Shown piece by piece: positions 582 through 20,536 of a DNA stretch of 64,000 nucleotides. Origin of the DNA: Shigella phage Sf19. The DNA is taken from sequence record MF327005; one strand, written 5' to 3'. The position numbers and the translations under genes were made by a program. The number at the start of each line of letters is the position of its first letter. Positions within the stretch are counted from its first letter, which is position 1. The notes below the pieces were generated by a model, which worked only from the letters and a program-made list of their open reading frames with translations, did not search any database and was not told the DNA's origin.

Positions 582-593
582 CAAGTCGCCGCA

Positions 594-647
594 ACGGGGC
601 AAATAGCCCCAGACACCTTTACAGCCCCTTAGATGGGGCTTTTTTAC
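594..647 (+). terminator. rho-independent terminator (two GC hairpins, T-run)
   Basis: ggggcaaatagcccc then agcccc-ttagat-ggggct followed by tttttt. Confidence 0.65.
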
Positions 648-649
648 GT

Positions 650-2225
650 CTTCCTAGAATCTTACCATTGATTCGATAGAATCTATCTCATACATTTAGA
701 ATAATAACTCTATAGCTTACTCTATATCCTCTTATCAAATCAACTATAAATTCCCTTAAATATAAGCCCATAACCCGAAAGGGAAGGGCAATCCCTAAAA
801 CGCTCTATAACGCTCTATACGGGCTTATCATCTCATCTTAAGCAATCATATTAACCTACTCTTAAAAGCCCTTTATAGAGCTTTCTAGAGCCTTAAAAGA
901 ATCTTATAAGGGTATAAGCTTTATTATCTCGTTAGTATCTTGTGAATGGTTACAAAGGGGCTATGAGATAGGACTCTATCGAATCCTATTGATAATAGCT
1001 TTAAAGTATGTTATGGAGTCTTCAAAGTAACGTAAAAGAACCTTAAAAGTAACGTAAAAGTTAGCCCCCTTTACATTCTCTTAACAAAATCTTAACAAAT
1101 GCTACATAGTTATGCTTGTTAGAGACTTGTTAGCCCCTTGTTAAATCCTTGTTAGAGGTATGTTAAGAGCTTGTTAGACACTTTGAAGTCCCTGTATAAG
1201 CCCCTAGAAAGCTCTATAAAGAGCTATACAGGTAGTTGGGGTGTAGTTACTAGGGAGAACCTTAGAAGAGGCTATACAGAGCTACAGAGAGCTTTTAAGA
1301 GGGCTTTATAGAGAATCACTAAGAAGGGAAGGGAACTATAGACCAAGAGAAGTTGTGTTTGTAAACAACCACTGTGACCATGTTAAGAGACTGTTAAAAA
1401 GGTTTAGAACTTGTTAGCACCTTGTTAATTATCTTAACAAAATAACTCTTAAGATTTAACTATTTAGCAACTTATAAGCAACTTGTTAGACTCTTGTTAG
1501 TAATGTTACAGACTGGTTAAGCTCTTGTTAGTTCTGTTAAAAGACTGTTAAGAACTCTGAAGAGATGTTAAGAGCTTGGAAGAGTTGTTAAGAGATTGTT
1601 AATGATATTTTAATAAACTGCAAAGGGGATGTTACAGGGCTGTTAAGGGCTACCAAGCAGATATACATCCTAAGTAGATATTTTCAAGAATCTCCAAAGA
1701 ACCTAAAAAGTAACCTACCTAGTCTATTTTATAAAAATTTTATAATTCTGAATAACTATCTATACACTATCTTATATAAAACAGGAATTAACAGGCTTAT
1801 AAGAGACCTTGTTAGTACCGTGTTAGACCTTGTAGGATAAGCCTTTACAGGGAATACCTGTTTAGTGTTATATAACAGTCTATATAGAGGCTTAGTAATA
1901 CCTAGTGATTCTGCTATATAGGGTACTATCTTGGACATAGAGATTAAGATGGGTATAGGGGCTTCTAAGGGGCTAGGAAGAGGTTAGGAAGGTGATTGTA
2001 TAGGGTTGATTAATGGTAGGCTTAGAAGGCTTTATAGAGGGCTATATAGAGAGCACTATTTAGGGACTAAGAGGTTATATAGATACTATATAATACTATA
2101 TAGAGATGATGCTTAGAGAGGGTGTTTAGAAGGGTATAGATATTTTATCACATATCATGGTGACCCAAGATGAACGGAGTGAATCCCAAATTTTATAAAA
2201 ATTATAAATTTCGTAAATTTTACTC
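650..2225. repeat. non-coding block with two families of short phased repeats (TGTTAAG-type at ~10-11 bp spacing; CTATA(C/G)AGAGC-type)
   Basis: No ORF >60 aa of note; dozens of TGTTA(A/G) units at helical spacing 1080-1190 and 1380-1620; TATAGAG/CTATACAG units 780-1330 and 1850-2150. Confidence 0.75.
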
Positions 2226-2228
2226 AAT

Positions 2229-2250
2229 AAAAAGCCCCAATTAAGGGGCT
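2229..2250 (-). terminator. rho-independent terminator for minus-strand gene 2259-2936
   Basis: agcccc-aattaa-ggggct hairpin with A-run on plus strand (T-run on minus). Confidence 0.6.
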
Positions 2251-16478: not shown

Positions 16479-16549
16479 CTCGCTTAGTTTATATGGTAAA
16501 GCCCCATCCTTACAAGTTGGTGAAGAAGGTTCAAGTCCTTCAGCGAGTA
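16478..16549 (+). tRNA. tRNA-Val (anticodon TAC)
   Basis: acceptor gctcgct/agcgagt, loop cttacaa, T-arm gaagg-ttcaagt-ccttc, CCA encoded. Confidence 0.7.
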
Positions 16550-16553
16550 CCAA

Positions 16554-16628
16554 GTTCCAGTATCCCAATTGGCAGAGGATGCAAGCTCAAACCTTGTATT
16601 AGTGACGGTTCGAATCCGTCTTGGAACA
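16554..16628 (+). tRNA. short (type-I-like) tRNA with Leu anticodon CAA
   Basis: acceptor gttccag/ttggaac, anticodon arm gcaag-ctcaaac-cttgt, A73, 75 nt. Confidence 0.6.
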
Positions 16629-16647
16629 CCAATTTTAGGAGATTCCT

Positions 16648-16860
16648 ATGAAGCCTTATGGTAGACATGGTAAAGTTGAAATTGCAAGTTGTGGCTGCTG
16701 TGCAGCACATGATGGTGAAGAAGATTATTACAAATGGCGTACAGACCATCGTAAACGCTTTCTCAGAAGAGATAAGAAGAGAGCTAGACAGGAATCTCAA
16801 AAGGATATTGCAGAATTAGTTCAAATGGATAGAGCAGCAACCTACGAAGTTGTTAGTTAG
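16648..16860 (+). CDS. small Cys-rich ORF whose 3' third overlaps tRNA-Arg
   Basis: 70 aa; strong AGGAG RBS 6 nt upstream of ATG; overlap with tRNA makes it doubtful. Confidence 0.25.
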   Translation: MKPYGRHGKVEIASCGCCAAHDGEEDYYKWRTDHRKRFLRRDKKRARQESQKDIAELVQMDRAATYEVVS

Positions 16861-16883
16861 GGGTTCGAATCCTCTATTCTGCA
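16810..16883 (+). tRNA. tRNA-Arg (anticodon ACG)
   Basis: acceptor gcagaat/attctgc, D-stem gttc/gagc, anticodon arm gcaac-ctacgaa-gttgt, CCA encoded. Confidence 0.75.
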
Positions 16884-16904
16884 CCAAATTTAATAGGTAA
16901 CATT

Positions 16905-17132
16905 ATGTATAAACTCATAGTTGAAAAACATAAAGATGACCACAAGATTGAAACAGGTAGATTTGGAGATACTTTCTTTATAGCGGTTGGTTGGCAATGT
17001 GACCCGTTAGAAGTTAGAAAGATTGTTTATAACTTTGCTGGATTAGAACTTAAGCAAGCTATCTTCGAAACATCACTACCTGAAAATAAGGATACTTGCA
17101 ATAACGCATATATTCTTTCAAGAGTTCGTTAG
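16905..17132 (+). CDS. hypothetical small protein between tRNAs
   Basis: 75 aa ORF; stop overlaps first nt of tRNA-Gln. Confidence 0.3.
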   Translation: MYKLIVEKHKDDHKIETGRFGDTFFIAVGWQCDPLEVRKIVYNFAGLELKQAIFETSLPENKDTCNNAYILSRVR

Positions 17133-17203
17133 GGGATTAGTTTACAAGGTTAAAACCTCGGTCTTTGAAATCGAAGAAGATGGTTCAATTCCATCATCCC
17201 CCG
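17131..17203 (+). tRNA. tRNA-Gln (anticodon TTG)
   Basis: loop ctttgaa; unpaired 1:72 (A:C) and G73 as expected for Gln identity; CCA encoded. Confidence 0.7.
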
Positions 17204-17208
17204 CCAAT

Positions 17209-17284
17209 GCTCCATTACTCCAATTGGCAGAGAGGCCAGATTTAAAATCTGTGTTATGTATCGGTTCGAATCCGATATGGAGTA
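17209..17284 (+). tRNA. short (type-I-like) tRNA with Leu anticodon TAA
   Basis: acceptor gctccat/atggagt, loop tttaaaa, T-arm atcgg-ttcgaat-ccgat, A73; D-arm paralogous to 15977 and 16554 tRNAs. Confidence 0.6.
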
Positions 17285-17293
17285 CCAAATATT

Positions 17294-17366
17294 AGCAGTA
17301 TAGCATAACTGGCAATGCTCCAGCCTCTGAAGCTGAAAGATTAAGGTTCAAATCCTTATACTGCTG
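17294..17366 (+). tRNA. tRNA-Gln (anticodon CTG)
   Basis: perfect acceptor agcagta/tactgct, loop ctctgaa, T-arm ttaaggttcaaatcctta, G73, CCA. Confidence 0.7.
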
Positions 17367-17372
17367 CCACTT

Positions 17373-17397
17373 CTAAGGGTTCTTACGAGAGTCCTTA
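17373..17397 (+). ncRNA. conserved hairpin with loop TTCTTACGAG (copy 2)
   Basis: taaggGTTCTTACGAGagtcctta; stem covaries with copy at 13796. Confidence 0.45.
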
Positions 17398-17400
17398 AAT

Positions 17401-17474
17401 GTGGCCTTATCATAAATGGATAATGACCCATGCTGTGAACATGGTCTATACGGGTTCGATTCCCGTAGGTCACC
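17401..17474 (+). tRNA. tRNA-His (anticodon GTG)
   Basis: D-stem tcat/atga, anticodon arm ccatg-ctgtgaa-catgg, C73 discriminator, CCA encoded. Confidence 0.8.
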
Positions 17475-17484
17475 CCAATTTAAT

Positions 17485-17557
17485 AGCTCAATTAGCTTAT
17501 ATGGTTAAAGCGCGTGTCTGAAAAACATGAGAACAGGGTTCAAATCCCGATGGGCTA
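17485..17557 (+). tRNA. tRNA-Phe (anticodon GAA), slightly irregular acceptor/D junction
   Basis: anticodon arm cgtgt-ctgaaaa-acatg, D-stem gctt/aagc, CCA encoded; one extra nt near positions 8-9. Confidence 0.55.
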
Positions 17558-17576
17558 CCAACTTTATAGGTGCATA

Positions 17577-18311
17577 ATGAAAGAGATGACAGAACAAAGT
17601 AAAGAGATTTTTAATCTCCTTAAAACTGGTAATGGTTTCTCAAACCCTCTTATTACTGGTGCAGCAGTTCTTGGTGGTACTATAGCTGCCTCTCAATCAT
17701 TAGTTAACTCAATTAGTTCTGTAACAGACCCAGCTACACAACAGATTTTAGTTGCTGCTGGACTGACAACAGCCTTATTAGGAAGCTTCACAACAAGCCT
17801 TGGAAGTACAACTTCAACGACAAGTACACTTACTGAGTATGGACAAAAGTCTGTAGATGAGTTTTCACAACGTATGCAAGTAGCCAAAGGTTACTCTAAC
17901 GTTATGGGAGCAGCAGGTGAACAGGTTGGATGTACACCATTTAGCGGTATCATGGGCGTAGCTACCGAGTACGGTAATAAAGCGATGGATTTGATTAATA
18001 CCTCCATAGACGCTGTAAATGGCGTTCTAAGCGATTTGCAAGATGCAATCGACCAAGGACTAGATACAATCTCTGAACTCGCTACACAGGCCGTTACAGC
18101 GATTAATGAGGGTATTGCAAAGATTACTGCATATGCTAATGAAGTAACTCAGATGATTGCAGATGAAGCAGCACTGATTGCAGAATACCTGAAAACAAAT
18201 ATTAATGGTTTCCTTGCGAATGTTCTACCAAGCTGGTTTGATGATTCATGTAAAACTGGTGTGATTGATACTATCGCAACTCCAGAGATGAAAGAAGCTC
18301 TGAACAAATAA
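17577..18311 (+). CDS. hypothetical protein (Ser/Thr/Ala-rich; one N-terminal hydrophobic segment)
   Basis: 244 aa from internal ATG with AGGTG RBS; track start 17514 lies inside tRNA-Phe. Confidence 0.5.
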   Translation: MKEMTEQSKEIFNLLKTGNGFSNPLITGAAVLGGTIAASQSLVNSISSVTDPATQQILVAAGLTTALLGSFTTSLGSTTSTTSTLTEYGQKSVDEFSQRMQVAKGYSNVMGAAGEQVGCTPFSGIMGVATEYGNKAMDLINTSIDAVNGVLSDLQDAIDQGLDTISELATQAVTAINEGIAKITAYANEVTQMIADEAALIAEYLKTNINGFLANVLPSWFDDSCKTGVIDTIATPEMKEALNK

Positions 18312-18312
18312 T

Positions 18313-18402
18313 GGAAGATTAACCCTAAAAGGTAAGGGAGCAGTTTGCTAAACTGCCAGTAACCGAGAAATCGGCGTACCAGTTCAAGTCTGGTATCTTC
18401 CT
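18313..18402 (+). tRNA. tRNA-Ser (anticodon GCT), long variable arm
   Basis: perfect acceptor ggaagat/atcttcc, anticodon arm gcagt-ttgctaa-actgc, 90 nt, CCA encoded. Confidence 0.8.
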
Positions 18403-18411
18403 CCAAATTAT

Positions 18412-18484
18412 GTGTCGGTGTCAGAAATGGTTATGTGCCTGTCTGCAAAACAGGTTTATGAGGGTTCGAGTCCCTTCCGATACT
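18412..18484 (+). tRNA. tRNA-Cys (anticodon GCA)
   Basis: anticodon arm cctgt-ctgcaaa-acagg, T-arm gaggg-ttcgagt-ccctt, CCA encoded. Confidence 0.8.
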
Positions 18485-18509
18485 CCAATTTATATTAATA
18501 TCTCTCTCA

Positions 18510-18706: not shown

Positions 18707-18913
18707 ATGAACGAGACTAATGTTTACAAAGAACTATATGAAACTCAGAAACAGGCTCAGATGCTTCAAGCAACTGTAATGGCTGTGGCTGAACGTTTAA
18801 TTGTTGCAACTGGTATTAACCCACAAGAAGCAACGATGGATAAACTTCTTAATTTAGTAGATGAAAAGTTTGGTGTAGAACCTAAACAGGAATCTGAAGA
18901 AGTTTCTGAATAA
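18707..18913 (+). CDS. hypothetical small protein upstream of terminase (possible small terminase subunit, unproven)
   Basis: 68 aa ORF with GGAG RBS; position only. Confidence 0.4.
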   Translation: MNETNVYKELYETQKQAQMLQATVMAVAERLIVATGINPQEATMDKLLNLVDEKFGVEPKQESEEVSE

Positions 18914-18919
18914 TTCTAT

Positions 18920-20536
18920 TTGCAGAGGTGCTTAATGGACTTAAATGTTATTAAGCAGAAGCGAGTGGAAGATGTAAGGAAAGTCCTAGCAGGTGAGTTG
19001 GGGCTTTCTGAAGAAGTAAAAGATATTATCAAATCCTTTGGTAAAGACCCCTCTAAATTCCTTCCAACTCAAATTCTGACTTTATTAAGATACACCCCAG
19101 ACCAAGTAAGGCTCATCTTTAAATTGATGACTGACAAGAACTATGTAGCTCCACAGCCTGGCTCTCAAGAGGTATTCTTGAACACTAATGCTGACTTGGT
19201 ACTATATGGTGGTGCTGCTGGTGCTGGTAAGACTGCTGCCCTATTAATGGACTCACTAAGGTTTATTGAAGACCCAAACTATAATGCTGTTTATTTCCGT
19301 CGAAATACAACACAGTTACAAGGTGGTCTATGGCCTGCGGCTAAGAAGTTATTTGGTAAGTTTGGTGGAGTTCCACATGAACAGAAAATGACTATCACTT
19401 TCCCTTCTGGAGCAACTATCAAGTTTACTTATTTGGAACTTGAGAAACACTCAGAAGGTCACCAAGGTATCGAATACTCAGCTATTTATTTCGACGAAGG
19501 TACACACTTCTCGGCTTCACAGATTTCATATCTTCAGACACGTTTACGTTCTGGTGCTGAAGGTGACTCATATATGAAAATCTCAATGAACCCAGATAGA
19601 GACCACTTTATTTATGATTGGGTAGAACCTTTCCTAGATGATGCTGGATATCCAGACCCAGAGAAGTGCGGCAGGATTCGTTGGTATGTTATGAATGATG
19701 GTGTCATGGTTTCTGATTGGGATAGAGACAAAATTCTTGAAATGTTCCCTCTTGAGATTCCTCAAACATATACCTTTATTTCCGGTACAATCGATGACAA
19801 CCCTATTCTAGATTTCCTTGAACCTAAGTATCGTGGTAAATTAGAAAACAACACACCAGTTAACGTTGCACGTTTACGTTTTGGTAACTGGAAAGCTCGT
19901 GCTGAAGGTTCAAACTACTGGCAAAGACAATGGTGTGAAATTGTTGATAGTGTTCCAGCAGACGTATTTGACGTGAGAGCATGGGACTTAGCAGCAACAT
20001 TACCTTCTGAGGTTAACCCTAACCCTGACTGGACAGCAGGTGTTAAAATGGGTAAATCTAAAAAAGATGGTTGCTATTATGTGATTAACGTAGTAAGATT
20101 TAGAGATAGACCTTCTGGAGTTGAAACACAAATTAACCAAACTGCTGAAGGTGATGGTAAGCGCACAGGTATTTTTATCCCTCAAGACCCCGGCGCTGCT
20201 GGTAAATCCTACGCAACCTCCCTTATTAGAAAACTTGCTGAGAAAGGTTTCCGAGCAAGAGCTAAACCAACAAATAAAGATAAAGTCACCCGTTTTGCGG
20301 GTTTCTCTGCTGCTTCTGAAGCAGGACTTGTCAAAATTGTTAGAGGCTCTTGGAATGAAGCATATTTCCAAGAACTAGAAGGTTTTTGTGGTGATGGTCG
20401 TACTAAGGATGACCAAGTGGATGCTACCAGTGATGCTTTCAACAGTCTAAACGAAGTTAAACTATTCAAGCCACCTTCAATGGGTGCTCATACAGATATT
20501 ATGAAGAGTAATCCATATCAGGGGCTAAGACGATAA
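18920..20536 (+). CDS. terL: terminase large subunit
   Basis: 538 aa; Walker A LYGGAAGAGKT; acidic nuclease-domain residues downstream; followed by portal-sized gene. Confidence 0.9.
   Translation: MQRCLMDLNVIKQKRVEDVRKVLAGELGLSEEVKDIIKSFGKDPSKFLPTQILTLLRYTPDQVRLIFKLMTDKNYVAPQPGSQEVFLNTNADLVLYGGAAGAGKTAALLMDSLRFIEDPNYNAVYFRRNTTQLQGGLWPAAKKLFGKFGGVPHEQKMTITFPSGATIKFTYLELEKHSEGHQGIEYSAIYFDEGTHFSASQISYLQTRLRSGAEGDSYMKISMNPDRDHFIYDWVEPFLDDAGYPDPEKCGRIRWYVMNDGVMVSDWDRDKILEMFPLEIPQTYTFISGTIDDNPILDFLEPKYRGKLENNTPVNVARLRFGNWKARAEGSNYWQRQWCEIVDSVPADVFDVRAWDLAATLPSEVNPNPDWTAGVKMGKSKKDGCYYVINVVRFRDRPSGVETQINQTAEGDGKRTGIFIPQDPGAAGKSYATSLIRKLAEKGFRARAKPTNKDKVTRFAGFSAASEAGLVKIVRGSWNEAYFQELEGFCGDGRTKDDQVDATSDAFNSLNEVKLFKPPSMGAHTDIMKSNPYQGLRR

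Follow-up and report, generated by a model that had tools for sequence, protein, structure and literature searches.

In the general model of the T7 concatemer junction, each junction holds one copy of the terminal repeat, which is duplicated during packaging. For phages with T7-type direct terminal repeats (DTRs), nicking followed by duplication through strand-displacement synthesis is the accepted general scheme. The subject of this analysis is a 1.6-kb block (positions 650–2225) in a stretch of 64,000 nt from Shigella phage Sf19 (sequence record MF327005), referred to here as the window. The phage is a Felix-O1-like myophage of the genus Mooglevirus (Ounavirinae), and the block is probably a genome-end junction of the Felix O1 type, with a DTR whose phased short units serve end recognition or packaging. 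DTRs of Felixounavirus and Mooglevirus are already known and are annotated in some relatives: the repeat of UAB_Phi87 measures 608 bp (Bal31 digestion and run-off sequencing; PMC4837284), that of Escherichia phage Pr103Blw 581 bp (PhageTerm; PMC8303462) and that of Ro111lw 613 bp (PMC6454146), and direct repeats at both termini are described for Citrobacter phage vB_CbrM_HP1 (PMC9120918). The Felix O1 genome paper inferred ‘short terminal repeats’ only from genome size and leaves the junction region undescribed. Throughout the literature searched on these phages the DTR is given only as a length, with no mention of phased TGTTAR units (R, A or G), of 11-bp quantisation or of boundaries built from a motif; the internal architecture of the DTR appears to be undescribed.

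Region 600–2260 of the window matches 255 phage records, with the best DNA matches to Shigella phages Sf15, ESh20 and Sf18 and to Escherichia phage 3HA14 (~94% identity) and with Felixounavirus records at 60–80%. The product of ORF 2259–2936 shows 100% identity to the protein Sf19_gp3 of Shigella phage Sf19. Several of the matching records start at window positions 1052–1115, and several others stop at 1652–1732. In Salmonella phage SeKF_63 the two record ends share an exact repeat of 613 bp. The Mooglevirus vB_CbrM_HP1 has 570-bp identical end repeats annotated as repeat_region, and in a search with window 1064–1654 alone query positions 1–591 corresponded to its record positions 1–570; Pr103Blw has identical end repeats, of which record positions 1–581 are annotated as ‘short direct terminal repeat region’. 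Junctions consisting of the right end followed by the left end were rebuilt for SeKF_63, HP1 and Pr103Blw and aligned with the window; in all three the DTR starts at window 1064 and stops at window 1654, exact to the base. For Pr103Blw the ends had come from PhageTerm, the kind of read-start check that the earlier note on this DNA had suggested. Because the end repeats of these relatives map base-exactly to 1064–1654, the block is best explained as a collapsed concatemer junction. By homology, positions 1064–1654 are thus very probably the DTR, present in one copy in the assembly and predicted at each end of the packaged genome, with 650–1063 as the tail of the right end and 1655–2225 as the head of the left end.

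Other records agree with these boundaries. The record of vB_EcoM_H12 begins at the base equivalent to window 1064, vB_EcoM_E9 matches from its first base over the whole DTR, and 23 records of Mooglevirus and Suspvirus agree completely (100% identity) at the left junction. As the TerL of the window is 95% identical to that of UAB_Phi87, the ends of which were determined experimentally, it belongs to a lineage that makes short DTRs. The DTRs of UAB_Phi87, Pr103Blw, Ro111lw and HP1 are homologous to the repeat described here (70–91% identity), have the same boundaries to the base and are located in the equivalent position, with the same convergent gene blocks on either side; the differences are that the Sf19 repeat is 591 bp long, through a 21-bp insertion, and that the assembly contains one copy of it, internal and without annotation. 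An earlier note on this DNA, made from the sequence alone, had listed genome terminal repeats among the possible roles of the whole block. That proposal suits the central 591 bp, whereas the rest of the block is non-coding DNA lying just inside the genome ends. The features of the junction are as follows.

586–646, plus strand: terminator region at the end of the rightward gene block (open reading frames (ORFs) 1–264 and 330–581), from a terminator scan, the sequence and the ORFs.
650–1063, no strand: left junction flank, predicted non-coding DNA inside the virion right end, with CTCTATA/TATAGAG units at 708–895.
1064–1654, no strand: predicted short DTR of 591 bp, single collapsed copy, from homology to the end repeats of relatives.
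1081–1097, minus strand: pair of TGTTAA units with 11-bp spacing, oriented toward the left DTR boundary, from the motif count.
1117–1177, plus strand: array of six CTTGTTAR units with an exact 11-bp period, from the motif count, repeat finders and alignment.
1190–1345, no strand: central cluster of CTATAGAG-type units inside the DTR, conservation 0.82–0.91 across three genera.
1350–1371, no strand: 21-bp insertion, without counterpart in 11 aligned relatives, from the alignment.
1381–1646, plus strand: second TGTTAR array, 13 units with spacings of 9–11, 20, 31, 44 and 61 bp.
1423–1441, no strand: palindrome TTGTTAA-TTATC-TTAACAA, two units head to head.
1655–2225, no strand: right junction flank, predicted non-coding DNA inside the virion left end.
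2233–2250, minus strand: terminator at the end of the leftward gene block (ORF 2259–2936 and beyond), from the terminator scan.

Within the block the most prominent motif is TGTTAR. On the plus strand 21 copies are present, compared with 1.36 ± 1.13 (maximum 6) in 1000 dinucleotide-preserving shuffles. This corresponds to 13.3 per kb against 1.04 per kb elsewhere in the window, a difference of about thirteen times, and no other cluster of at least three units was found in the remaining 62 kb. Nineteen of the 21 lie within the 1064–1654 repeat. Six of them (1117, 1128, 1139, 1150, 1161 and 1172) follow one another in exact 11-bp steps, and the 13 between 1381 and 1641 are phased with a Rayleigh R of 0.88 at the best period of 10.3 bp; two further units, both TGTTAG, are at 1810 and 1821. 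Overall the spacing is 11 bp or a multiple of ~10.4 bp. The periodicity has p ~0.001 against random placement under the same period scan. The phased TGTTA-type repeats reported in the earlier note are real. Its count of more than 20 is accurate for the 6-mer TGTTAR, but the 7-mer it had named, TGTTA(A/G)(G/C), occurs in the block only 8 times. Likewise, of the units it had placed in 1080–1190, the array at 1117–1172 is there as described, whereas those at 1081 and 1092 are inverted. Inverted units (YTAACA) also occur at 1434 and 1788.

Both ends of the DTR are marked by copies of this unit. At the left end, a degenerate third reverse unit, TGTAAAGGGGGC, abuts the cut beside the pair at 1081–1097; at the right end, the second array closes with CTGTTAAGGGC, 8 bp short of the boundary. 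The left boundary reads ...AAAAGTTA on its outer side and GCCCCCTTTACATT on its inner side, and the right boundary ...CTGTTAAGGGCTACC followed by AAGCAGATATACA. Read outward, with a slash at the boundary, the left end (bottom strand) is ...TTGTTAAGAnAATGTwAAGGGGGC/TA and the right end (top strand) is ...TGTTAmAGGGCTGTTAAGGGCTACC/AA, each nearly invariant in 12 phages, and the common unit that closes both ends outward is TGTTAAGGG(GG)C. Repeated units, as candidate recognition elements, abut both predicted cut points in outward orientation, and the arrays are confined to the junction.

The 12 aligned junctions come from three genera: Mooglevirus (the window, Michonne, Sf14, KMM4 and HP1), Suspvirus (SUSP1 and SUSP2) and Felixounavirus (tootiki, allfine, Pr103Blw, SeKF_63 and Felix O1). 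All 12 have 16–20 forward and 3–4 reverse units in the DTR, and in all 12 the best TGTTAR period falls at 10.1–10.45 bp (p ≤ 0.0035). The length of the DTR varies among them (558, 569, 570, 581, 591 and 613 bp), and its indels of more than 1 bp measure, without exception, 11, 11, 11, 11, 21, 21 or 22 bp. The insertion at 1350–1371 (the AAGTTGTGTTTGTAAACAACCAC region) is one of these, spanning about two helical turns and explaining why this repeat has 591 bp when other Moogleviruses have 570 bp; it is probably present in ESh20 too, whose DTR match likewise runs to 591 bp. At the 19 DTR sites the TGTTA core is conserved at 0.83–0.99 between the window and Felixounavirus (at least 0.95 for four of the five bases), while the spacers around these sites are conserved at 0.45–0.75. 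The alignment indicates that the core is under purifying selection. The palindrome at 1423–1441 is part of the 30 bp with the highest conservation in the DTR (0.97), and the local A+T content is 85%.

T7 has a similar arrangement. In the T7 junction, rebuilt from NC_001604, 13 co-oriented CCTAAAG units with a 13-bp period occupy both flanks and the inside of the 160-bp repeat. The architecture is similar, without sequence similarity, and the period differs (13 bp in T7, 10.3–11 bp here). In T7 the left-end flank, outside the repeat, has 8 of the 13 units; here the repeat itself contains 19 of 21. The T7 junction is adjoined by terminase genes and phage-polymerase promoters, whereas in the window TerL is 17 kb off and the promoter signal does not exceed chance. 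The lambda cosB region, with its gpNu1 R-sites, and SPP1 pacL/pacR are alike in concept, as it is general knowledge that several short sites by the cleavage point assemble the small terminase and position the nuclease. Those systems, however, generate cohesive ends or headful cuts from 3 to ~7 sites beside the terminase genes, in contrast to ~20 sites and an exact DTR. A terminal repeat with cleavage and packaging signals and a long tandem array of ~12-bp DR2 units is also found in the herpesvirus ‘a’ sequence (pac1/pac2). The combination of repeat and array is alike there, but the virus is eukaryotic, the sequence is unrelated and the arrays are, as is generally known, G+C-rich and perfectly tandem.

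A role of the phased units in packaging or terminase binding is plausible, because each of the two DTR boundaries is made from one and the same unit, with a core far better conserved than the spacers. We tentatively regard the ~20 phased TGTTAR units, which lie on one face of the helix, as putative sites for a sequence-specific end-recognition or packaging protein, an assignment that we hold at somewhat less than even confidence. Such a binder could be a small-terminase-like partner of TerL; candidate proteins are those of the 68-amino-acid ORF 18707–18913 upstream of TerL, the DUF7217 protein (17514–18311) and a Whirly-fold protein (ORF 2259–2936). Winged-helix proteins such as PhoB and OmpR bind 11-bp direct repeats head-to-tail, and several small terminases carry domains of this kind. 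Bound head-to-tail along the DTR, such a protein would form a nucleoprotein scaffold, on which the outermost, outward-facing TGTTAAGGG(GG)C units would position the nuclease; this would nick opposite strands at 1063/1064 and at 1654/1655, and, following the T7 model, strand-displacement synthesis would then copy the DTR into two. Accessory sites of the same junction may be provided by the units of CTATAGAG type and by those of AAAGTAACGTA in the flanks.

Several points weigh against this scheme. The cuts are not symmetric with respect to the shared unit, the distance to the T of TGTTAA being 12 nt at the left cut and 14 nt at the right one. No small terminase was found by Pfam or PHROGs matches among the ORFs beside TerL or beside the block. 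TerL itself (18920–20536; phrog_979) is 17 kb from the junction, unlike the arrangement in many pac and cos systems, in which the site is beside the terminase genes. Tandem 11-bp units can slip in replication, so the 11-bp quantisation alone is no proof of selection for phase. The termini of Sf19 itself are placed by homology to relatives. To our knowledge, the function of the corresponding T7 arrays is not firmly established either.

Of the other ways to account for the arrays, one keeps a sequence-specific protein and gives it a different task. The arrays could bind a non-terminase protein, either a ‘telomere-like’ factor that protects or joins ends or an organiser of nucleoid type on the injected repeats, which might protect the ends from RecBCD or pair the two DTR copies for concatemer formation; the Whirly-fold protein encoded beside the left end would be one candidate. 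We consider this unlikely. Whirly proteins are generally known as binders of single-stranded nucleic acid whose sequence specificity is low, which leaves a strictly conserved duplex motif unexplained, as does the reading as a whole for cut sites made of the same unit. In addition, the Foldseek scores of the candidate are weak and the N-terminal half of its model is of low confidence.

The TGTTAR arrays might instead be iterons of a replication origin located in the terminal repeat, bound by an initiator that melts an adjacent A+T-rich stretch; an origin was among the possibilities listed in the earlier note. Short, co-oriented, directly repeated and helically phased units have the classic look of iterons, conservation is in the motif and drift in the spacers, and DNA with 85–90% A+T is present at 1425–1464, inside the DTR, and at 1720–1769, just outside it. 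The origins of lambda (ori) and P1 (oriR) and those of plasmids likewise have tandem, co-oriented and helically phased iterons near A+T-rich DNA. Their units are 17–22 bp long, however, and number 4–5 or so, whereas the core here has 5–6 bp in an 11-bp frame, and they are accompanied by an adjacent initiator gene and often by DnaA or IHF sites. Such companions were not found: searches of the block for DnaA boxes, IHF consensus sites, Pho boxes and Chi gave 0 occurrences, and the flanking ORFs have no initiator-like or DNA-binding domain match in Pfam or PHROGs. Moreover, the arrays end exactly where the DTR does, and the sequences at its two boundaries are themselves copies of the unit; an origin predicts neither. 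We therefore regard an origin as quite unlikely, and nothing in the block beyond the general appearance of the repeats and the nearby A+T-rich stretches speaks for this part of the earlier proposal.

That the repeats have no function and are simple sequence, prone to slippage and tolerated where two convergent transcription units leave a gene-free spacer, would agree with indels of whole 11-bp units and with a block that lacks a conserved ORF, an Rfam family or an above-chance promoter, but is scarcely credible given the contrast between core and spacers across genera, the retention of 16–20 units and their positions in 12 phages of three genera, and conservation of the whole block at least equal to that of the flanking genes.

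If the preferred reading, a genome-end junction whose units serve end recognition or packaging, is taken further, the DTR of the Ounavirinae could be a purpose-built protein scaffold of ~56 helical turns, in which one sequence-specific protein coats the repeat and also sets the cut sites. The ~20 TGTTAR units on one face, the length steps of whole turns (558–613 bp) and the outward unit at both ends would fit such a scaffold. The system would then lack a recognisable small terminase, with possible participation of the Whirly-fold protein encoded at the left end. We regard this extension as doubtful.

TGTTAR is not the only family of repeats in the junction. The second short-repeat family claimed in the earlier note was recovered as CTCTATA/TATAGAG, with 11 copies in the block where shuffles give 1.02 ± 0.96; the remaining 62 kb contain only 7. 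CTCTATA is mostly on the left (708, 720, 803, 813 and 1212) and TATAGAG mostly on the right (1307, 1883, 2033, 2045 and 2099, with one at 874); the orientation switches within the central cluster, from CTCTATA at 1212 to TATAGAG at 1307. The wider CTATAGAG-type family, which is kept in all relatives, forms three clusters, in the left flank, the DTR centre and the right flank. Its contrast in conservation is weaker than that of TGTTAR (core 0.82–1.00, flanks 0.73–0.87, background 0.72). A 29-nt inverted repeat with 90% complementarity pairs 867–895 in the left flank with 1197–1225 inside the DTR, and may simply be the CTATAGAG-type family in its two orientations. The flank of the T7 junction also has CTATAGAG- and CCTATAGGG-like elements that resemble this second family, possibly by coincidence.

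A third family, based on the 11-bp unit AAAGTAACGTA, is repeated 3.5 times at 1024–1061 (TRF and repeat finder), in an array that stops 2 bp before the DTR boundary at 1063/1064; a related copy, the AAAGAACCTAAAAAGTAACCTA element, is at 1696–1717 in the right flank. The right flank further contains TATAGAG/CTATATAG units at 1880–2105 and an invariant ATTTTATAAAAATTT at 1726 that is repeated at 2190. The longer sequence ATTTTATAAAAATT(T/A)TA(T)AATTC is present in two copies that are 87% alike. The copy at 1726–1748, 70 bp outside the right DTR boundary, is invariant in 12 of 12 aligned phages, and the copy at 2190–2212 is located just before the leftward terminator.

Gene blocks on both sides of the 1.6-kb block read toward the predicted genome ends and are halted at terminators, and the flanking convergent terminators named in the earlier note are borne out by hairpins with T runs at 623–640 on the plus strand (AGCCCCTTAGATGGGGCT, followed by TTTTTT) and at 2250–2233 on the minus strand. 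Terminators are annotated at the homologous places in Michonne on the left side and in Michonne, Moogle and Mordin on the right. The view that the block has no convincing ORF also holds, as each of its four small ORFs (33–60 amino acids) has several stops or frameshifts in Felixounavirus relatives even though the DNA aligns. The block had no Rfam match at E ≤ 1, its 7 promoter-like sites in a sigma-70 scan are below the 10.4 expected by chance, and as to structured non-coding RNA genes neither an Rfam match nor a promoter–terminator unit was found in it. From end to end the block is 72–79% identical between Mooglevirus and Felixounavirus, while neighbouring genes align only partly. A Logan contig with a near-identical neighbouring gene runs unbroken across it. 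A protein search with the flanking genes returned nothing beyond the same ~255 records, and no more distant homologous junction was reached for comparison.

Some features of the wider window were also recorded. A cluster of 25 tRNA genes on the plus strand (13036–18487) is directly upstream of a DUF7217 protein (17514–18311) and TerL. GATC is absent from the 64,000 nt (196 ± 13 in dinucleotide-preserving shuffles), and other short palindromes are depleted throughout: CCGG (10 against 96), CGCG (8 against 96), GCGC (18 against 96), GGCC (32 against 96), TCGA (89 against 228) and CTAG (93 against 228). The absence of GATC and the depletion of palindromes look like restriction or Dam-related avoidance. 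TATA is also scarce in the window as a whole (226 copies, 541 expected), yet 43 of the 226 are in the 1.6-kb block, which also has 8 of the 12 copies of TATATA.

Three records were set aside for the mapping of ends. The UAB_Phi87 record JN225449 ends in the tRNA/terminase region, which does not correspond to the physical ends. It is 87,603 bp long, compared with 87,669 bp and 608-bp DTRs in the paper (PMC4837284), so the record is not arranged by the mapped ends, and the text of the paper gives no DTR coordinates. Erwinia phage FIfi106 (Kolesnikvirus, OR284297), considered as a representative of a fourth genus, has a 123-bp end overlap in coding-looking DNA, without arrays or similarity to the block, and was rejected as an assembly overlap. 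Citrobacter phage KMM2 (OP902295), ‘complete by DTR’ in its paper, has a 64-bp overlap at window ~1579–1642, an assembly overlap inside the true DTR. The end overlaps of KMM2 and FIfi106 look like ‘DTRs’ to completeness tools.

As the DTR was known beforehand, the result is moderately surprising in biological terms. The records of most Moogleviruses and of many Felixounaviruses have been opened at arbitrary points, and the predicted termini at 1064 and 1654 can be transferred to them. For the relatives of Felix O1, which are widespread phages in therapy and diagnostics without a defined small terminase or packaging signal, the junction offers a testable recognition code, consisting of TGTTAR, the boundary form TGTTAAGGGC and 11-bp phasing. 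Such a code would help to engineer packaging-competent vectors or reporter phages.

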